From: Escherichia coli
GTDB taxonomy: Bacteria > Pseudomonadota > Gammaproteobacteria > Enterobacterales > Enterobacteriaceae
Reading direction: 5' to 3' (one strand)
Length of the DNA stretch: 64,000 nucleotides
NCBI RefSeq assembly: GCF_044324785.1
Contig: NZ_CP172127.1
Made by a program: the position numbers and the translations under genes. Below are positions 34,200 to 63,730 of the stretch, piece after piece (position 1 is the first letter of the stretch; every line of letters begins with the position of its first letter). The notes below the pieces were generated by a model that made no database searches, had not been told where the DNA came from, and worked only from the letters and a program-made list of their open reading frames with translations.

Positions 34200-34777
34200 G
34201 TGTTCCCCGCGCCAGCGGGGATAAACCGGGCGTTTCATGCTCATTGTTACCAACCCGCCAGTGTTCCCCGCGCCAGCGGGGATAAACCGCCGATGATCGG
34301 GCTCGGCATTTCGTCGAGGGGGTGTTCCCCGCGCCAGCGGGGATAAACCGGCTTGCAGCAGCTGCGCCAACGTCTGAATATGGTGTTCCCCGCGCCAGCG
34401 GGGATAAACCGATGGTGAGTGGTTGCATATGTGCCTGGCTATCGTGTTCCCCGCGCCAGCGGGGATAAACCGAGGCTATCTATCAGCCATTCTTCATCTA
34501 CTGAGTGTTCCCCGCGCCAGCGGGGATAAACCGGTCTGCTCGTGAGTCCGCGGCGCGAATTGCCGGTGTTCCCCGCGCCAGCGGGGATAAACCGCGAAGC
34601 TCCTTCCGTTGATTACCAAAATGTTGGTGTTCCCCGCGCCAGCGGGGATAAACCGACCGCCCGAACGGCAAAGGGGGCTTCTGGAAGGAGTTCCCCACGT
34701 CAGCGGGGATAAACCGGACACAGAGCGCCGCTATAGCGCCTATGCCAAGAGTTCCCCGCACCAGCGGGAATAAACCA
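34200..34777 (+). CRISPR. Type I-E CRISPR array, 10 repeats (29 bp, GTGTTCCCCGCGCCAGCGGGGATAAACCG), 9 spacers of 32 bp; last two repeats degenerate
   Basis: Repeats start at 34200, 34261, 34322, 34383, 34444, 34505, 34566, 34627, 34688 (gagttccccacgtcagc...), 34749 (gagttccccgcaccagcgggaataaacca); 61-bp periodicity read directly from the sequence. Confidence 0.97.
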
Positions 34778-50475: not shown

Positions 50476-51210
50476 ATGTCCAAACTCGATCTAAACGCCC
50501 TGAACGAACTGCCGAAGGTAGATCGCATTCTGGCGCTTGCAGAAACTAACGCCGAACTGGAAAAACTGGATGCTGAAGGCCGCGTTGCCTGGGCGCTGGA
50601 TAATCTGCCCGGTGAATATGTACTTTCTTCCAGTTTCGGCATTCAGGCGGCGGTGAGCCTGCATCTGGTGAATCAGATTCACCCGGATATCCCGGTGATC
50701 CTGACCGATACGGGTTATCTGTTCCCGGAAACCTACCGCTTTATTGACGTGTTAACGGACAAACTCAAGCTCAACCTGAAAGTGTACCGAGCTACCGAAA
50801 GCGCCGCCTGGCAGGAAGCACGCTACGGCAAACTGTGGGAGCAGGGCGTTGAAGGCATTGAAAAGTACAATGACATCAACAAAGTCGAACCGATGAACCG
50901 GGCGCTGAAAGAACTGAATGCGCAAACGTGGTTTGCTGGCCTGCGCCGCGAACAATCCGGCAGTCGCGCCAATTTACCGGTGCTGGCAATTCAGCGTGGC
51001 GTATTTAAAGTGCTGCCGATTATCGACTGGGATAACCGAACGATATATCAGTATCTGCAAAAACATGGCCTGAAATATCATCCATTATGGGACGAAGGAT
51101 ATTTATCCGTCGGTGATACCCATACAACCCGTAAATGGGAACCCGGCATGGCGGAAGAAGAAACGCGTTTCTTTGGCTTAAAAAGGGAATGTGGGCTGCA
51201 CGAAGGGTAA
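50476..51210 (+). CDS. cysH: Phosphoadenosine phosphosulfate (PAPS) reductase
   Basis: ORF 50323-51210; start at the ATG giving [31 protein letters not shown]... (244 aa); upstream in-frame extension runs through the REP and is not credible. Confidence 0.94.
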
Positions 51211-51474
51211 ATATTGCCGGATAAATTAAACGCCTCTGTCAGAAATGATGGGGGCGTTTTTATTTTGCGAGCAGCATTCCGGCATTTAAAGGTGAACATC
51301 GCAGGGAGAATTAACAGGTATAGAATGGAGTTGGGTGCTTGAGGCTGTCTGGCGTTAAGCATTCGCGAGGTTCCAGATGGACAAAAGCCCCAGGCGATAT
51401 TTCTATCAACCTGAGGCCAGCGTTCGAACCTAAGCAATTCGAATGTTAGTCTCTTCTTTGCAGGGAGGCAAGAC

Positions 51475-51627
51475 ATGCTGACAAAATATGCCCTTGTGGC
51501 AATCATCGTACTGTGTTGTACAGTACTGGGATTCACGCTGATGGTAGGCGACTCGTTGTGTGAGTTGAGTATCAGAGAACGTGGTATGGAGTTTAAGGCA
51601 GTTCTCGCTTACGAATCGAAGAAGTAG
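51475..51627 (+). CDS. Hok/Gef-family type I toxin (small membrane peptide)
   Basis: 50-codon [53 protein letters not shown] preceded by SD gggagg; N-terminal TM helix, LCE motif and C-terminal AYES motif as in Hok/HokC(Gef) (MK...LCE...AYES); not in the supplied ORF track (below its length cut-off); corresponds to the position where K-12 carries a sok-like sRNA annotation (recalled). Confidence 0.75.
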
Positions 51628-51821
51628 CCACCACGCGGGGGTAAAACCCCGCGTACTGAATTGTGATGGTTTGGTCTCCTGCACCCTTTTTTAATTTATA
51701 TTGTTTATGTGAATATTATGCCTATGTTTATTATTCATATATATTACGGATGAAAATTATTTGATTATTCATAATGTAAATATTTTATTGAACGATATAT
51801 ATCACAGATAATTTTTAATAT

Positions 51822-54521
51822 ATGCGTAAATATCCTTTAAGTTTACTGAAGGATAAAAATATTGTGACTTTTTTTGATTTCTGGGGAAAAACCCGACGCG
51901 GCGAGAAAGACGGGGGCGACGACTATCACCTTCTTTGCTGGCATTCGCTGGATGTAGCCGCGATGGGCTATTTAATGGTTAAAAGCAATTGCTTCGGGCT
52001 GGCTGACTATTTTCGTCAACTAGGTTTCGCTGATACGGAGCAGGCAGCACAATTTTTCGCCTGGCTATTGTGCTGGCACGATACTGGAAAATTTGCCCGC
52101 TCTTTTCAGCAACTTTACCTGCACCCGCAACTCAAGGTTCCGGAAAGCTCTAGAAAAAATTACGAAAAAATCTCTCATTCAACGCTGGGTTACTGGTTGT
52201 GGCACCATTATTTAAGTGAATGCGAAGAATTGCTTCCTGCATCTTCACTCTCTCCGCGCAAGCTCAAACGGGTAATAGATATGTGGATGCCCATAACTAC
52301 CGGGCATCATGGTCGGCCTCCTGACCGTATGGATGAACTGGACAACTTTCTGCCTGAAGACAAAGCTGCCGCACGAGATTTTCTCCTTGCAATCAAGGCA
52401 CTGTTTCCGCTCATAGAGATCCCCACATTCTGGGATGATGACGAGGGCGTTGAACTCATAAAACAACTTTCCTGGTATATCTCTGCAACCGTCGTACTCG
52501 CAGACTGGACGGGATCGTCAGCGCGATTTTTTCCACGCGTCGCGCAGGCAATGGATATTGAAGATTACTGGCAGAAGGCTTTAGTTCAGGCTCAAAACGC
52601 ATTAACCGTCTTTCCTCCAAAAGCACAAACCGCGCCTTTCACCGGAATTAATACGCTGTTTCCTTTTATTGAGCACTCGACACCGTTACAGCAAAAGGTG
52701 CTGGATCTGGATATCAGCCAGCCTGGGCCACAGTTATTTATTCTGGAGGATGTGACTGGCGCAGGTAAAACAGAAGCGGCGCTTATCCTGGCCCACAGGT
52801 TGATGGCTGCGGGGAAAGCACAGGGTTTGTTTTTTGGCCTGCCAACAATGGCAACGGCCAATGCCATGTACGATCGGCTGGTCAAAACCTGGCTTGCTTT
52901 CTATTCGCCACAATCCCGCCCCAGCCTGGTGCTGGCACACAGTGCCCGCACATTAATGGATCGCTTTAATGAATCACTCTGGTCCGGTGATTTAGTCGGG
53001 TCAGAAGAACCGGATGAACAAACGTTCAGTCAGGGATGTGCGGCCTGGTTTGCCGACAGTAACAAGAAGGCGTTGCTGGCTGAAATTGGCGTCGGCACTT
53101 TGGATCAGGCGATGATGGCGGTGATGCCGTTCAAACATAATAATCTGCGGCTTCTGGGGCTGAGTAATAAAATCCTGCTGGCTGATGAGATCCACGCCTG
53201 TGACGCTTACATGTCATGCATTCTTGAAGGGCTGATCGAGCGGCAGGCGCGTGGCGGAAACAGCGTCATTTTGCTTTCTGCCACGTTATCTCAACAGCAG
53301 CGCGACAAACTCGTTGCTGCCTTTGCGCGTGGTACAGAGGGCCAGCAAGAAGCTCCGTTCCTGGAAAAGGATGATTACCCCTGGCTGACGCACGTTACGA
53401 AATCCGATGTGCATTCACACCGGGTAGCGACGCGCAAAGACGTTGAGCGTAGCGTGAGCGTGGGTTGGCTTCATAGCGAACAAGAATGTATTGCGCGTAT
53501 CGAATCGGCAGTAAGTCAGGGGAAATGCATCGCCTGGATCCGGAATTCTGTCGATGACGCTATTAAGGTTTATCGTCAGTTGCTTGCCCGCGGCGTCATT
53601 CCTGCTTCCAGCCTTTCTCTGTTTCATAGCCGCTTTGCTTTTAGCGATCGCCAGCGAATTGAAACGGAAACGCTGGCACGCTTCGGTAAAAGTTGTAGTT
53701 TACAGAGATCATCGCAAGTCATTGTTTGTACACAAGTAATTGAACAAAGTGTGGATATTGACCTGGACGAAATGATATCCGACCTGGCCCCTGTTGATTT
53801 GCTGATCCAACGGGCGGGGCGATTACAGCGGCATATCCGCGATATTAATGGTCAGTTAAAGCGTGACGGAAAAGACGAGCGTTCCCCTCCTGAATTGCTG
53901 ATTCTGGCCCCCGTCTGGGACGACGCTCCAGGTGACGAATGGTTCGGCAGTGCCATGCGTAACAGTGCATATGTCTATCCCGATCATGGACGAATCTGGC
54001 TGACGCAGCGTGTACTGCGTGAGCAAGGCGCTATTCAAATGCCACACGCAGCCCGCCTTCTTATTGAATCAGTCTACGGTGAGGACGTGGTAATGCCGGA
54101 AGGATTTGCCCGCAGCGAGCAGGAACAAGTGGGCAAATATTACTGCGATCGCGCAATGGCTAAAAAGTTTGTGCTGAACTTCAGGCCCGGCTATGCCGCC
54201 AATATCAACGATTACCTCCCGGAAAAACTGTCGACACGTCTGTCTGAGGAGTCTGTTTCCCTGTGGCTGTCTACCTGTATTGCCGGTGTGGTAAAGCCTT
54301 ATGCCAACGGTGCTCACGCATGGGAAATGAGCGTTGTCAGAGTGCGTCGAAGCTGGTGGAAAAAACATCGCGATGAGTTTTCTTTACTGGAAGGGGATGC
54401 GTTCAGACAGTGGTGCGTTGAACAGCGGCAAGATCCGGAGATGGCAAATGTGATTTTAGTTACCGATGACGAAAGTTGCGGGTATTCGGCTACGGAGGGA
54501 TTGATAGGTAAGGTTGATTGA
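51822..54521 (+). CDS. cas3: Cas3 helicase-nuclease (type I-E)
   Basis: 899-aa ORF with HD nuclease N-terminal region (HSLDVA...), DEAD-like helicase Walker A (EDVTGAGKTEAA) and DExH box (LLADEIHACD); an alternative GTG start at 51864 is possible. Confidence 0.93.
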   Translation: MRKYPLSLLKDKNIVTFFDFWGKTRRGEKDGGDDYHLLCWHSLDVAAMGYLMVKSNCFGLADYFRQLGFADTEQAAQFFAWLLCWHDTGKFARSFQQLYLHPQLKVPESSRKNYEKISHSTLGYWLWHHYLSECEELLPASSLSPRKLKRVIDMWMPITTGHHGRPPDRMDELDNFLPEDKAAARDFLLAIKALFPLIEIPTFWDDDEGVELIKQLSWYISATVVLADWTGSSARFFPRVAQAMDIEDYWQKALVQAQNALTVFPPKAQTAPFTGINTLFPFIEHSTPLQQKVLDLDISQPGPQLFILEDVTGAGKTEAALILAHRLMAAGKAQGLFFGLPTMATANAMYDRLVKTWLAFYSPQSRPSLVLAHSARTLMDRFNESLWSGDLVGSEEPDEQTFSQGCAAWFADSNKKALLAEIGVGTLDQAMMAVMPFKHNNLRLLGLSNKILLADEIHACDAYMSCILEGLIERQARGGNSVILLSATLSQQQRDKLVAAFARGTEGQQEAPFLEKDDYPWLTHVTKSDVHSHRVATRKDVERSVSVGWLHSEQECIARIESAVSQGKCIAWIRNSVDDAIKVYRQLLARGVIPASSLSLFHSRFAFSDRQRIETETLARFGKSCSLQRSSQVIVCTQVIEQSVDIDLDEMISDLAPVDLLIQRAGRLQRHIRDINGQLKRDGKDERSPPELLILAPVWDDAPGDEWFGSAMRNSAYVYPDHGRIWLTQRVLREQGAIQMPHAARLLIESVYGEDVVMPEGFARSEQEQVGKYYCDRAMAKKFVLNFRPGYAANINDYLPEKLSTRLSEESVSLWLSTCIAGVVKPYANGAHAWEMSVVRVRRSWWKKHRDEFSLLEGDAFRQWCVEQRQDPEMANVILVTDDESCGYSATEGLIGKVD

Positions 54522-54547
54522 GATGCCCTGGCGTCGGATGACGCCAG

Positions 54548-54576
54548 GGCTTATCCCCGCTGACGCGGGGAACAGG
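54548..54576 (-). repeat. Solitary CRISPR-repeat-like sequence in inverted orientation downstream of cas3
   Basis: Minus-strand reading cctgttccccgcgtcagcggggataagcc matches the array repeat at 25 of 27 aligned positions; immediately preceded by a second perfect hairpin gccctggcgtc-ggat-gacgccagggc (54525-54550). Confidence 0.8.
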
Positions 54577-54950
54577 AGCATAAAATGATATACGTGTATC
54601 ACTAACTTGGTTAATCCCTTAGACAGGGAACTGAAGACGTTTATATCAAAAATAAGGGTTATTCGAAATAAAGAAAATCTCTAAGAGTTATTGATATACG
54701 TAACAATGTCCGGAAGCAGAGTTGAAAAACCTTTTGATAAAGAATACTTTGGTTTTTATTAAGTGATAGAGCCTGAGCGAAAAGGATTATAGAAAATTAT
54801 CTTTATATATTCGTGTGATTTATTGATTATTTAATAATAATCTAATTTTCAATATATTCATTTAATATGATGTAATCTCTCTTTTCGATTGATTCTTGAA
54901 TATGGTGATGGACAACCTACCATGGATGGTCTTATTTGCGAGGAAAGCGT
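54577..54950 (+). promoter_or_regulatory. cas3-cse1 intergenic region, expected Cascade operon promoter (Pcas; H-NS/LeuO-controlled in K-12)
   Basis: About 370 bp of strongly AT-rich non-coding DNA upstream of cse1 with a good RBS (gagga) before the ATG at 54951; promoter elements not mapped. Confidence 0.5.
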
Positions 54951-56509
54951 ATGGAATTTTTTTCAATTATAACAACCCCGTGGTTGCCCGTTCGTTATAA
55001 AGACGGAACGACAGGCAAACTGGCGCCAGTCGATCTGGCGGATGAAAATGTTGTCGATATCGCTGCGCCGCGGGCAGATCTCCAGGGGGCGGCCTGGCAG
55101 TTTTTGCTGGGGCTACTACAAACCAGCTTCGCGCCAAAAGATCATCGTCGTTGGGATGATATCTGGGAAGACGGACTGGAAGCTGAAAAGCTACGGGAAG
55201 CATTGCTATCTTTAGAACATGCTTTCCAGTTTGGCCCAGATTCCCCTTCATTTATGCAGGATTTCGAGGCGCTCACGGGAGATAAAGTTCAGATCGCTTC
55301 GCTACTGCCTGAGATTCCCGGCGCTCAAACAACGAAGTTTAATAAAGACCACTTTATTAAACGTGGCGTGACTGAACACGTATGCCCTCATTGTTCTGCG
55401 TTAGCTCTGTTCTCCCTACAGTTAAATGCACCGTCAGGCGGCAAAGGCTATCGCACCGGTTTACGCGGCGGTGGGCCGATGACCACTCTGATTGAATTAC
55501 AGGAATATCAGGGCAATCAACAAACGCCATTGTGGCGCAAACTGTGGCTCAACGTGATGCCGCAGGATGAAGCCGACTTACCGCTACCCAAAAAATTTGA
55601 CGATCTGGTTTTCCCCTGGCTTGGCCCGACGCGTACCAGCGAACTGACCGGTGCGGTGGTAACCGATGATCAGGTTAATAAACTCCAGGCGTACTGGGGA
55701 ATGCCACGGCGTATTCGTATTGATTTTAATACCACGACAGTCGGCAACTGCGATATTTGCGGTGAGCAGAGCGACGCGCTGCTAAGCCTGATGACGACCA
55801 AAAATTACGGCGCTAACTATGCCATGTGGCTGCATCCCTTAACGCCTTACCGTGTACCCCTTAAAGAGGGTGGCGAGTTTTACTCGGTCAAACCACAACC
55901 GGGCGGTTTAATCTGGCGCGACTGGTTAGGCCTTATCGAAACGGGTAAGTCAGAAAACAATACGGAACTTCCTGCACTGGTGGTGAAACTCTTTAATGCC
56001 AGCAGTCTGAAACAGGCAAAAGTGGGCCTGTGGGGATTTGGTTATGATTTTGACAACATGAAAGCGCGCTGTTGGTACGAACACCATTTCCCGCTACTGC
56101 TCAATAAAAAAGAAGGCCAGATACCGAAGCTGCGGCTGGCTGCGCAAACGGCTTCACGGATTCTGAGTCTGTTACGGAGTGCATTGAAAGAAGCATGGTT
56201 CTCCGATCCAAAAGGTGCAAGGGGTGATTTCAGTTTTGTGGATATCGACTTCTGGAACAAAACTCAGCATCGCTTCCTGAGGTTAGTGCGCCAAATTGAA
56301 GAAGGTCAGGATGCGGATGAATTACTCGGCAAATGGCAAAAGGAAATTTGGTTATTCGCGCGTCAGGATTTTGACGAGCGTGTATTCACTAATCCTTATG
56401 AGCCCGTTGATTTGAAACGCGTCATGACCGCGCGCAAGAAATATTTTACAACATCGGCGGAGAAGCAAAGTGCTAAAGCCGCCAGGGAGAAAAAGCAGGA
56501 GGCTGCTGA

Positions 56510-56513
<4 letters not shown>
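54951..56513 (+). CDS. casA: Cse1 / CasA (Cas8e), Cascade large subunit
   Basis: ORF 54936-56513; start chosen at MEFFSIITTPWLPVRYKDG... after RBS; first gene after cas3, about 520 aa; highly divergent from the K-12 CasA sequence as I recall it. Confidence 0.85.
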
Positions 56514-58116
<1,603 letters not shown>

Positions 58117-58126
58117 GGGGCGGCTA

Positions 58127-58873
58127 ATGAGCCAATATTTGATTTTTCAGCTTCATGGGCCAATGGCATCCTGGGGCGTCGATGCCCCCGGCGAAGTGCG
58201 TCATACCCATGAACTGCCTTCGCGCTCAGCATTGCTGGGGCTGCTGGCTGCCGGGGTAGGGATTCGGCGTGATGATACCGAACGATTAAACGCGTTTAAC
58301 CGCCACTATTCACTGGTGGTTTGCGCCAGCCGTAACCCGCGCTGGGCACGGGATTATCACACGGTCCAGATGCCAAAAGAGGTGCGTAAAGCGCGTTATT
58401 TCAGCCGTCGCGAAGAGTTGAGCGCCCCTGATCTTCTGAGCGCGATTATCTCCCGGCGCGACTACTACACCGATGCCTGGTGGATGGTGGCGGTGGCAAC
58501 AACCCCCGATGCGCCTTACAGCCTTGAACAGTTGCAGGACGGTTTACGTCATCCGGTTTTTCCGCTTTATCTGGGGCGAAAAAGTCATCCGCTGGCGTTA
58601 CCACTTGCGCCGTTACTGCTCGAAGGCAACGCGTCTGATGTCTTACGTAACGCATACCAACAGTATCAGGATAGTTTCCGCGAACTGAAAGTCTCACTCC
58701 CGAAACTTCAGGATGAATGCTGGTGGGAAGGGGAACACGACGGCCTGGTCGCGAGCAAAATATTACGTCGCCGGGATGTTCCTTTAAATCGTCAGCAGTG
58801 GCTGTTTGGGGAACGCACCATCAATCAGGGGCCGTGGCTCAGCAAGGAGGAACCATGTACCTCTCAAGAATAA
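58127..58873 (+). CDS. casD: Cas5e / CasD
   Basis: 248-aa ORF MSQYLIFQLHGPMASWGVDAPGEVRHT...SRSALLGLLAAGVGIRRDDT..., alignable to K-12 CasD (MRSYLILRLAGPMQAWGQPT...). Confidence 0.88.
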   Translation: MSQYLIFQLHGPMASWGVDAPGEVRHTHELPSRSALLGLLAAGVGIRRDDTERLNAFNRHYSLVVCASRNPRWARDYHTVQMPKEVRKARYFSRREELSAPDLLSAIISRRDYYTDAWWMVAVATTPDAPYSLEQLQDGLRHPVFPLYLGRKSHPLALPLAPLLLEGNASDVLRNAYQQYQDSFRELKVSLPKLQDECWWEGEHDGLVASKILRRRDVPLNRQQWLFGERTINQGPWLSKEEPCTSQE

Positions 58874-59501
58874 CCTTACATACCGGCCAGCTTTCGCCTG
58901 CGCAGTTGCTGCATTTGGTGGATCGCGGTGAATATGTAATGCATCAGTGGCTGTGGGATCTTTTTCCTGGCGGCAAAGAAAGGCAATTTCTTTATCGTCG
59001 GGAAGAACTCCAGGGGGCGTTTCGCTTTTTTGTCCTGTCGCAGGAACGCCCGGCGGAAAGTGATATTTTCACCATCGAATGCCGACCATTTGCGCCAGAG
59101 TTGCGTACCGGACAATCCCTTTGTTTCAACCTCCGGGCGAATCCAACAATTTGTAAAGCGGGCAAACGCCACGACTTGCTGATGGAGGCGAAACGGCAGG
59201 TGAGGGGGCAGGTGGAAGGAAGTGATGTCTGGTTGCATCAACAACAGGCTGCGCTGGACTGGCTGGCAGCGCAGGGGGAGAGAAGCGGTTTTACACTGCT
59301 GGATACTTCGGTTGATGCCTACCGACAACAGCAACTGCGGCGGGAAAACTCCCGGCAACTGATCCAGTTCAGTAGCGTGGATTATACGGGGATGCTTACG
59401 GTCACCGATCCTGGGTTATTTCTGCAACGTCTCAGTCAGGGGTATGGCAAAAGCCGGGCGTTCGGTTGTGGTCTGATGCTGATCAAACCCGGAGCAGAGG
59501 C

Positions 59502-59505
<4 letters not shown>
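58855..59505 (+). CDS. casE: Cas6e / CasE crRNA endoribonuclease
   Basis: Start at ATG 58855 after RBS aaggagg; MYLSRITLHTGQLSPAQLLHLVD... (K-12 CasE begins MYLSKVII...); overlaps the cas5 3' end by 19 nt; 216 aa. Confidence 0.88.
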
Positions 59506-60715
<1,210 letters not shown>

Positions 60716-60811
60716 GTTATCCGTTCTTTAAAAATAAGGAAATGTTTTAATTTAGTTGGTAGATTGTTGATGCGGAATAAATTTGTTTAAAAACAGTTAT
60801 GTATGCTTAGT
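60716..60811 (+). promoter_or_regulatory. CRISPR leader (array at 60812-61512)
   Basis: AT-rich 96 bp between the cas2 stop and the first repeat (…ggaaatgttttaatttagttggtagattgttgatgcggaataaatttgtttaaaaacagttatgtatgcttagt). Confidence 0.75.
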
Positions 60812-61512
60812 GTGTTCCCCGCGCCAGCGGGGATAAACCGTTTCACCGTCGTTCCGTCCGCGCGCTTAGCCTGTGTTCCCCGCGCCAGCGGGGATAAACC
60901 GATTGCGCGGACCGGGCCAGCGCGTCGATTTCTGTGTTCCCCGCGCCAGCGGGGATAAACCGGTGACGACGATCCCAACGCTGCAAAAGGTTAAGTGTTC
61001 CCCGCGCCAGCGGGGATAAACCGCCGTGCTCAATTCAACACCCGACACTGCGCGAGTGTTCCCCGCGCCAGCGGGGATAAACCGTTGTAATTTTGTTCAG
61101 TCTGGCCCATAGCGCGCGTGTTCCCCGCGCCAGCGGGGATAAACCGTTTTGTGAGTATCTTATTTGTCTGGCTCGGTGGTGTTCCCCGCGCCAGCGGGGA
61201 TAAACCGATCTGTTTGCAGATCAACAGGCCCGTAAGGACGTGTTCCCCGCGCCAGCGGGGATAAACCGATAACGCCCGCGCGATCTGGATTATCAGTTAC
61301 GTGTTCCCCGCGCCAGCGGGGATAAACCGCCCGACGGCAGTCGGAGATTAACTATATATGTGTGTTCCCCGCGCCAGCGGGGATAAACCGGGTAAAAACA
61401 CGGTCTGAACCGACATTCATGTGTGTTCCCCGCGTCAGCGGGGATAAACCGGACGCACTGGATGCGATGATGGATATCACTTAGAATTCCCCGCCCCTGC
61501 GGTAGAACTCGC
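60812..61512 (+). CRISPR. Type I-E CRISPR array, 12 repeats (11 canonical 29-bp GTGTTCCCCGCGCCAGCGGGGATAAACCG plus 1 degenerate terminal), 11 spacers of 32-33 bp
   Basis: Repeats start at 60812, 60873, 60934, 60995, 61056, 61118, 61179, 61240, 61301, 61362, 61423 (gcgTcagc variant) and degenerate 61484 (gaattccccgcccctgcggtagaactcgc). Confidence 0.97.
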
Positions 61513-61532
61513 AGCTCTCATTTTCAAACCCA

Positions 61533-62570
61533 TCAAGACGCCTTCGCCAGCTCCTTCACCAGCGGTAGCATTATCCGCATAACATCACGGCAGCGACGTT
61601 CTATTCTTCCTGGAAGTGCCTTATCAATATGTTGTTGATTATCCAGTCTTACGTCATGCCAGCTATTTCCCGCAGGGAATGCGGCTGTTTTTGCGCGTTG
61701 CTGATAACCATCTTTATTCCCAAGATTCCAGTTTGTCGCTTCCACCGAAAGTACAGCAATGCCCGCTTTGTCGAATATTTCGGCGTCATTACAACACCCA
61801 GTGCCTTTCGGATAATTTTTATTCAAACCCGGATTGGTCGTTGCGGCAATTCCATGACTACGCGCAATTGCCAGCGCCCTGTCGCGCGTTAATTTCCTTA
61901 CTGCTTCAGGGGTTTTTACACCGCTGTTGAAATACAATTTATCGCCAACAATTAAGTTATCGAGATTAATCACCAGCAGCGTATTTTTCTTTTCGGTGTC
62001 ACTCATCCGCTTGAGTAAATTCTCAGCGCCTAATTTTCCTTCCTCTTCGCCGCTGGTCGCCACAAATCGAATACCATACTCGGTAGGCGTATTTTTCAGA
62101 CGTTCTGCCAATTCCAGCATGACACCTAAACCTGCGGCGTTATCATCCATTCCTTGTAACGTCAGCCCGCCGAGATTGGCATCGGCGTCAGCATCGCTCA
62201 GCGGGGCGTAAGTATCCAGATGCGCCATAATGATGATCTGCTGCGGCGCTTTGCCTTCATGAGCGGCAATCACCGTACTTCCCGTCACGTTATGCCAGCT
62301 CTTGCGATTATCGCGGGCGGTATAAATATACCGACTATTAAATGTCCGAATATCACTGCGATAACCCATTTGCTGAAACTGTTGGCGAATATAATCGGCA
62401 GATAACATTTCTGCAGGAGTTCCGGTCATGCGTCCCGGAAAGAAAGTAGCAATATGTCGTGCCTGGGTATTAGCAAAATCGCCAGGTTTAGGTGACGAGG
62501 CGTGTACGGGGAGAATAAAGCATACGCCGAGCGCCAGGGCAGCGGTACGGTGGCGCAATGCGGAAAACAT
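61533..62570 (-). CDS. iap: Alkaline phosphatase isozyme conversion aminopeptidase
   Basis: 345-aa ORF MFSALRHRTAALALGVCFILPVHASSPKPGDF... (signal peptide, M28-type peptidase). Confidence 0.92.
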   Translation of the reverse strand: MFSALRHRTAALALGVCFILPVHASSPKPGDFANTQARHIATFFPGRMTGTPAEMLSADYIRQQFQQMGYRSDIRTFNSRYIYTARDNRKSWHNVTGSTVIAAHEGKAPQQIIIMAHLDTYAPLSDADADANLGGLTLQGMDDNAAGLGVMLELAERLKNTPTEYGIRFVATSGEEEGKLGAENLLKRMSDTEKKNTLLVINLDNLIVGDKLYFNSGVKTPEAVRKLTRDRALAIARSHGIAATTNPGLNKNYPKGTGCCNDAEIFDKAGIAVLSVEATNWNLGNKDGYQQRAKTAAFPAGNSWHDVRLDNQQHIDKALPGRIERRCRDVMRIMLPLVKELAKAS

Positions 62571-62821
62571 AGTGAGTCCTTAAATACCATGCAAATTTTT
62601 TTACCGCCATAGTATGAAACTGCCGCTGCGCTAAAACAATTTCAAATCTTCCTAAACGCCCGAAATCCGGTGCCTTAAGCACTTTTTGATATTAGCTTTG
62701 CCAAATCGTTATTCCGTTAAGGAACTACTCATTCTAATTGGTAATTTCATTCGTTCTCTTACGCTCCCTATAGTCGAAACATCTGATGGCAAGAAAATAG
62801 CGGTATTGCAAAGGAACGGTT

Positions 62822-63730
62822 ATGGATCAAAAACGACTTACTCACCTGCGGCAACTGGAGGCGGAAAGCATCCACATTATTCGCGAGGTGGCGGCAGAAT
62901 TCTCAAATCCGGTGATGCTCTACTCTATCGGTAAAGATTCCAGCGTCATGTTGCATCTGGCGCGCAAGGCGTTTTATCCAGGTACGCTGCCTTTCCCGTT
63001 GCTGCATGTCGATACCGGCTGGAAATTCCGCGAGATGTATGAGTTCCGCGATCGTACGGCGAAAGCCTACGGCTGCGAGCTGCTGGTGCATAAAAACCCG
63101 GAAGGCGTGGCGATGGGGATTAATCCATTCGTACACGGCAGCGCGAAACATACCGATATTATGAAAACTGAAGGCCTGAAACAGGCGCTGAACAAATACG
63201 GTTTTGATGCCGCCTTCGGTGGTGCGCGCCGTGACGAAGAGAAATCCCGCGCTAAAGAGCGAATCTACTCTTTCCGTGACCGCTTCCATCGCTGGGATCC
63301 GAAAAATCAGCGCCCGGAGCTGTGGCACAACTACAACGGGCAAATTAACAAAGGCGAAAGCATCCGCGTCTTCCCGCTCTCTAACTGGACCGAGCAGGAT
63401 ATCTGGCAATACATCTGGCTGGAAAATATTGACATTGTTCCACTGTATCTCGCTGCGGAACGACCGGTTCTGGAACGCGACGGTATGTTGATGATGATTG
63501 ATGACAACCGTATCGACCTGCAACCGGGAGAAGTGATTAAAAAACGGATGGTGCGTTTCCGTACGCTGGGCTGCTGGCCGCTGACCGGTGCGGTGGAGTC
63601 AAATGCACAAACACTGCCGGAAATCATCGAAGAGATGCTGGTTTCCACCACCAGTGAACGCCAGGGTCGCGTGATTGACCGCGACCAGGCGGGATCCATG
63701 GAGTTGAAAAAACGTCAGGGGTATTTTTAA
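62822..63730 (+). CDS. cysD: Sulfate adenylyltransferase subunit 2
   Basis: 302-aa [50 protein letters not shown]... (PAPS-reductase-like fold). Confidence 0.96.

Follow-up and report, generated by a model that had tools for sequence, protein, structure and literature searches.

CRISPR-I loci of Escherichia coli

The CRISPR-I array of Escherichia coli K-12, which is located between iap and cas2, is the locus of Ishino 1987 and represents the cas-EK variant with repeat-T and leader-T. In type I-E systems, Cas7e forms the six-subunit backbone of Cascade, and Cas1-Cas2 is sufficient for naive acquisition. Diez-Villasenor et al. 2013 (PMC3737337) distinguished cas-EK, characterized by leader-T, repeat-T and the motif CTT, from cas-EO, characterized by leader-A, repeat-A and the motif CWT (AWG on the other strand), among which CAT (ATG) is predominant. 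In the orientation used here, the CAT motif corresponds to 5'-ATG directly upstream of the spacer sequence.

The array described here is found in a 64-kb stretch of E. coli DNA (hereafter the window, to which all positions refer), and its spacers are numbered s1 to s11 from the leader. With high confidence, it is the E. coli CRISPR-I array (CRISPR2.1, cas2-iap), of type I-E and belonging to the cas-EO variant rather than to that of K-12. It is best interpreted as documenting past contacts with temperate phages of the P1/P7-like and P2-like kinds, in a lineage in which the effector has recently decayed, and not as a working defence or a regulator. The array shares with K-12 CRISPR-I the position between cas2 and iap, the 61-nt periodicity, a partly conserved leader, and a homologous oldest spacer (two mismatches). 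In contrast, all the other spacers differ, and the repeat deviates from that of K-12 by one base (GTG... instead of GAG...; on the opposite strand, ...AACAC here and ...AACTC in K-12). Cas3 and the Cascade proteins are only 20–34% identical to those of K-12, whereas Cas1 and Cas2 are ~85% identical, and casC, which is intact in K-12, carries the nonsense mutation E83* here. The divergence of Cascade and Cas3 from K-12, together with the ...AACAC repeat, fits the cas-EO variant; the locus combines leader-A and the type-A repeat with cas genes that are unlike those of K-12, the assignment following the description in PMC3737337 rather than an O157:H7 sequence. As in O157:H7-type cas-EO loci (PMC3737337), repeat A and K-12-divergent cas genes are accompanied by ATG at the targets of s3 and s9 and at that of phage P1, although the P7-type target of s10 has CTG, which deviates from the CWT (AWG) motif. 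The CRISPR-I locus of E. coli N3 (NZ_CP031609.1) resembles the present one in its leader, its flanks and the order of s1, s9, s10 and s11, but s2–s8 are missing there and its cas7e is intact.

The cas operon and its surroundings

The genes that accompany the array are as follows.

51822-54521, plus strand: cas3, intact
54951-56513, plus strand: casA (cse1), intact
56510-57046, plus strand: casB (cse2), intact
57061-58116, plus strand: cas7e (casC) pseudogene, GAA to TAA at codon 83 (57307-57309)
58127-58873, plus strand: cas5e, intact
58855-59505, plus strand: cas6e, intact
59502-60425, plus strand: cas1e, intact, 307 aa (TIGR03638, 379.5 bits against a cut-off of 215.6)
60422-60715, plus strand: cas2e, intact, 97 aa (TIGR01873, 132.5 bits against a cut-off of 33)
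61533-62570, minus strand: iap (aminopeptidase; NF007568, 705 bits), the classical flank of E. coli CRISPR-I

The whole set of type I-E cas genes (cas3, cse1, cse2, cas7e, cas5e, cas6e, cas1e and cas2e) is thus adjacent to the array. All eight Cas proteins matched the type I-E NCBIfam models, seven of them at full length and above the cut-off, and cas7e as a split match. The adaptation module is represented by full-length cas1e and cas2e, which align with N3 without a stop or gap; the intact cas1-cas2 pair that the preliminary description had placed beside the array is indeed uninterrupted, with both products (307 and 97 aa) above the NCBIfam cut-offs.

The gene order cysJIH-hok-cas-array-iap-cysDNC is collinear with that of E. 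coli N3 and K-12, and the window is 98–99.3% identical to N3 over ~49 kb, which identifies its source as E. coli. The identity is uneven within the segment 48841-60715, where casB, cas5e, cas2e and hok are 100% identical to their N3 counterparts, cas7e is 99.8% and cas3 99.3% identical, and casA, cas6e, cas1e and cysH are only ~96% identical. The operon region is therefore mosaic, and the pattern suggests block-wise recombination inside the cas operon. A 50-aa ORF of the Hok/Gef toxin family (51475-51627) is located between cysH and cas3 and is 100% identical to that of N3; K-12 carries the sokX small RNA at this position.

Architecture of the array

The elements of the array and the spacers for which individual results were obtained are listed below.

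60716-60811, plus strand: CRISPR-I leader, 96 nt, 26% GC, between the cas2e stop codon and the first repeat
60812-61512, plus strand: CRISPR array with 11 repeats of 29 nt, a degenerate terminal repeat and 11 spacers
60841-60872, plus strand: s1, the leader-proximal, newest spacer; among complete genomes, an array copy elsewhere only in E. coli N3
60902-60933, plus strand: s2, 29/32 positions shared with a tape-measure gene in a prophage of E. coli STEC384 (also STEC379); flanking triplet GTG
60963-60994, plus strand: s3, identical at 32/32 positions to a tail-fibre gene in a prophage of E. coli N1420; PAM ATG
61330-61361, plus strand: s9, 32/32 match to a tail-sheath gene of the P2-like prophage IMG/VR UViG_2529293142_000021; PAM ATG
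61391-61422, plus strand: s10, 32/32 match to upf94.2 of phage P7 (homologue of P1 lxr), Salmonella phage SJ46 and ~100 P1-like/IncY plasmids
61452-61483, plus strand: s11, the ancestral anchor spacer, differing at two positions from the terminal spacer of K-12 CRISPR-I
61484-61512, plus strand: degenerate terminal repeat GAATTCCCCGCCCCTGCGGTAGAACTCGC, the twelfth and decayed copy

The repeat GTGTTCCCCGCGCCAGCGGGGATAAACCG occurs in 11 copies, the first at 60812, with a period of 61 nt and a single interval of 62 nt; ten copies are exact and the eleventh has a single C-to-T mismatch. No repeat match was obtained in 100 shuffles of the window. The 11 spacers are all different and 32 nt long, except for s5 with 33 nt, so that the arrangement is that of a type I-E array, with at least three near-identical repeats of ~29 nt and unique spacers of 32–33 nt. 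For the repeat, a hairpin with a GC stem of 7 bp and a tetraloop is predicted (-15.2 kcal/mol, z = -3.2), and the repeat is identical to that of K-12 at 28/29 positions, placing it in the I-E repeat class with a Cas6e-type stem-loop. An Rfam scan of 60600-61700 yielded no family at the gathering score, and the repeat identity therefore rests on the direct comparison with K-12.

The leader aligns with the CRISPR-I leader of K-12 and with the leader of the second array of the window (CRISPR-II), and its conserved blocks include GTTGGT.G.TTGT and the TTTAG adjoining the repeat. An AT-rich leader and a decayed repeat thus mark the two ends of the array, similar decayed terminal repeats being present in K-12 and N3. 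A scan of the leader for the sigma-70 consensus gave no promoter; the scan was strict, and this result is not counted as evidence against transcription. The distal end (61497-61524) is terminator-like, in that a 6-bp hairpin within the degenerate terminal repeat precedes the T-run CTCTCATTTT. This terminator-like site faces the 3' end of iap.

The preliminary description had placed an array at 60812-61512, which extends exactly from the first repeat to the terminal repeat, and the 11 spacers that it had given in leader-to-distal order are identical, in the same order, to those extracted here. Its statement that most spacers are GC-rich does not hold, because the mean GC content of the spacers is 0.513 compared with 0.506 for the window and exceeds 55% in only three of the 11 (s1, s2 and s4); the spacers look GC-rich only against the 26%-GC leader.

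Nonsense mutation in cas7e and the state of Cascade

Every cas gene of the window aligns with its N3 counterpart without gaps. Compared with the intact N3 allele, cas7e has two nucleotide differences, one of which converts codon 83 from GAA to TAA (E83*). The stop is placed at codon 83 of 351 and leaves a product of 82 aa, and the two halves of the gene match positions 1-79 and 83-325 of the TIGR01869 profile. The intact Cascade of a functional interference module, including the Cas7e backbone, is accordingly missing. As Cas7e is the backbone of the complex and its product is reduced to 82 aa, no surveillance complex would be assembled, and interference and primed adaptation would be lost. Judged from the gene sequence, Cascade is almost certainly dead, in agreement with the earlier suggestion that it might be inactive.

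The E83* allele is absent from the complete RefSeq E. coli genomes, but the identical 82-aa truncated product occurs in 187 blocks of public assemblies. One of these, CATQYT010000004.1 (GCA_958306885.1), is 100% identical to 51061-63309 of the window and contains all 11 spacers, implying that the stop is real and fixed in the lineage. A sequencing error as the source of the stop was rejected, since the same product was called in many independent assemblies. The same array is also present in GCA_053151395.1, in which cysH and hok have given way to a transposase gene on the cas3 side of the operon. A 370-aa DDE_Tnp_1 transposase lies directly upstream of cas3 in GCA_053151395.1 and in SRR11094212 (contigs L015, 1-407, and L016, 1-523), and this replacement is a further remodelling of the cas promoter region in some members of the same lineage. 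A literature search on nonsense mutations of cas7 in E. coli turned up nothing more specific than cas3/cse1 frameshifts, mentioned in general terms for O26:H11.

By analogy with established type I-E systems, array transcripts would originate from the leader, and cleavage inside every repeat hairpin by Cas6e would release 61-nt crRNAs. With the 82-aa Cas7e product, the assembly of Cascade would fail, along with interference and primed adaptation, whereas the intact Cas1-Cas2 may in principle still support naive acquisition. A system that is still functional, with the TAA codon suppressed, bypassed by re-initiation or compensated, would explain why both arrays and the remaining cas genes have been preserved without defects and why CRISPR-II carries three leader-proximal spacers that are not in its nearest relative N3. 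This explanation is nevertheless highly improbable. The only in-frame downstream ORF restarts 150 codons into cas7e, which makes a near-full-length Cas7e impossible, and no second cas7 is present within the 64-kb window. Furthermore, a second lineage with the same stop, which is discussed below, has a split cas3, a feature that fits ongoing decay.

Origin of the spacers and flanking motifs

The 20 spacers of both arrays were compared with INPHARED phages and PLSDB plasmids (E<=1), and the 11 spacers of CRISPR-I were compared with 5426 complete E. coli genomes. For orphan spacers, exact 24-mer cores were searched against IMG/VR, and some were also searched against JGI metagenomes and GTDB representatives; these scans require exact matches, so that diverged protospacers would be missed. 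Four of the 11 spacers could be assigned to a source, in each case a temperate phage or prophage. The preliminary description had regarded all 11 as being of unknown origin, which stands for seven of them but not for s10, s9 and s3, which have exact protospacers, or for s2 (29/32).

Among the 20 spacers, only s10 matched entries of INPHARED and PLSDB, and the nine spacers of CRISPR-II had no match among the phages or plasmids of these collections. Two PLSDB records that matched s11 in addition were set aside, being 4.9-Mb chromosomes filed among plasmids. The target gene of s2 was assigned to the PHROG tail length tape measure (1.8e-47), and the mismatches are PAM-distal, at positions 20, 26 and 29. 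The gene targeted by s3 belongs to the PHROG tail fiber (1.7e-152). The gene targeted by s9 encodes a tail sheath (1.3e-98), and its neighbours match Tail_P2_I, Phage_tube and Phage_P2_GpU. In the exact 24-mer scans of IMG/VR, s9 alone matched, and nothing was found for s1, s4, s5, s6, s7, s8 and s11. Scans of metagenomes for s1 and s7 and of GTDB representatives for s4 and s1 likewise gave nothing. Thus, s1 has no target in the phages, plasmids, IMG/VR, metagenomes or GTDB genomes, and s4–s8 and s11 have none in any collection searched. According to PMC10910852, E. coli spacers mostly target prophages; the four traced spacers agree with this, and their temperate-phage origin also agrees with Dion et al.

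Regarding the flanking motifs, ATG adjoins the two exact prophage targets (s3, s9) as well as the 28/32 target in P1, whereas CTG is found at the exact s10 targets and GTG at the 29/32 target of s2. The evidence for an AWG (AAG/ATG) PAM is therefore limited to the two exact prophage matches and P1. In the exact P7-type targets of s10, CTG occupies the PAM position in five of five examined; the positions noted for the s10 targets are 1498-1500 in L002 and L003 and 298-300 in L006-L009. The interference class of a CTG PAM is not listed in the text of PMC6568314, in which group membership is given only in a figure. The lxr gene of phage P1 matches s10 at 28/32 positions and is preceded by ATG, with mismatches at 4, 16, 17 and 19, one of which (position 4) lies in the seed. 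As the P7-type target has a CTG PAM and the P1 target, in spite of its ATG, has four mismatches including one in the seed, both look like potential escape forms.

The preliminary description had raised the possibility that self-matching spacers are tolerated when Cascade is inactive. In such a case, one or more spacers would match a resident prophage or plasmid, and the cas7e mutation may even have been selected because it relieves autoimmunity. The inactivated cas7e is consistent with this explanation, as is the fact that s2, s3, s9 and s10 target prophages or P1-like plasmids, which are elements that E. coli strains carry. In addition, PMC10910852 puts the share of complete E. coli genomes with a self-targeting event at ~10%, and about 11 complete genomes seem, from summary counts, to hold both s10 and a plasmid with the exact protospacer. 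The same summary counts give an expectation of ~16 such genomes by chance. No spacer has a second match within the 64-kb window, where the best chance matches are 14–18 nt. Among the 5426 complete genomes, s1–s9 match non-CRISPR DNA in only three, always in accessory prophages, and have no match in the core chromosome; moreover, assemblies with this array are absent among the listed carriers of the s9 or s3 target proteins. Tolerated self-targeting is thus considered unlikely in this strain, at a level close to the background rate for the species reported in PMC10910852.

Relationship to other arrays

The whole array is found in none of the complete E. coli genomes, the best full-length identity being 82.5%. 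At least one spacer is shared with 3942 of the 5426 complete genomes, mostly s11 or the pair s10 and s11, and s10 alone is present in 1090. The spacers s1 and s9 are shared only by N3 among complete genomes. The N3 array consists of s1-s9-s10-s11, and the absence of s2–s8 from it would be explained most simply by a deletion through repeat-to-repeat recombination. The second repeat of the N3 array (L001, 12033-12060) is 28 nt long, one C short in a CCCC run, which may reflect true variation or a mistake in assembling the homopolymer.

The spacers s2–s8 are absent from all other arrays of the 5426 complete genomes, part of s3 being the nearest to an exception, and the practical value of the locus is therefore limited to strain typing. 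The central part of s3 (60963-60994) is matched at 27/28 bases within CRISPR arrays of five complete E. coli genomes, which suggests either that the same region of the tail-fibre gene was sampled independently from a variant phage or that the spacer itself has diverged between the arrays.

The second array of the window is the following.

34200-34777, plus strand: CRISPR-II (CRISPR2.3), with the same repeat, nine spacers and its own leader, between queE and ygcE

Six of its nine spacers are common to N3 in the same order, the remainder being the three leader-proximal ones noted above, which are found in this lineage only, and the N3 CRISPR-II has two internal spacers that are missing from the array of the window.

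Second occurrence of the stop codon and meaning of the decay

In GCA_958328965.1 (contig L014, 6247-6249), codon 83 of cas7e likewise reads TAA in place of GAA. This contig has a different array with five spacers and a cas3 that is also split, and its cas7e differs from that of the window at 37 of 1056 sites. Among complete genomes, the alleles closest to that of L014 are 99.9% identical to it, one nucleotide away, and are annotated as cas7e with no pseudogene mark; each of the two E83* alleles is separated by one or two substitutions from the alleles of intact relatives. The occurrence of the same stop on diverged alleles, each near-identical to an intact one, points to independent recurrence, and in terms of allele comparison E83* looks like a mutation that arose separately in the two lineages. 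Gene conversion as the origin of the shared stop in L014 was considered unlikely, since a site 4 nt upstream of the stop differs between the alleles.

The type I-E system of E. coli is silenced by H-NS under laboratory conditions, a point that is restated in the abstract of PMC10910852. If the array and operon were already silent in this way, as in K-12, the nonsense mutation in cas7e may be inconsequential drift in a neutral fossil. The spacer content also gives some support to this explanation. The newest spacer is s1 in both this strain and N3, indicating that CRISPR-I has not grown since s1 was shared, and the near-chance co-occurrence of s10 with its exact plasmid target, as counted above, points in the same direction. 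The same GAA-to-TAA change on two alleles 37 sites apart is, however, unexpected for pure drift, and the prophage bias of the spacers suggests that the system worked in nature. Inconsequential drift is a tentative explanation, a real possibility that falls short of an even chance, beside the reading preferred here, namely a record of past phage encounters with a recently decayed effector.

A further interpretation of the recurrence is that selection has repeatedly disarmed Cascade in natural E. coli lineages but left cas1-cas2 and the arrays in place, perhaps so that a prophage or P1-like plasmid targeted by an old spacer is tolerated. This interpretation appears improbable at present, and selection to disarm Cascade as the cause of the recurrence of E83* is speculative.

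Overall, the locus is of a canonical, already well-described kind and is a routine E. coli array. Its type-A repeat, the ATG at two exact prophage targets, the temperate-phage spacers and the anchor spacer reproduce the features of large surveys, and it adds one more case of effector decay in a natural isolate. The only unusual aspect is the occurrence of the same E83* on a second, diverged cas7e allele, and such a recurrent nonsense codon would matter only if it was selected.
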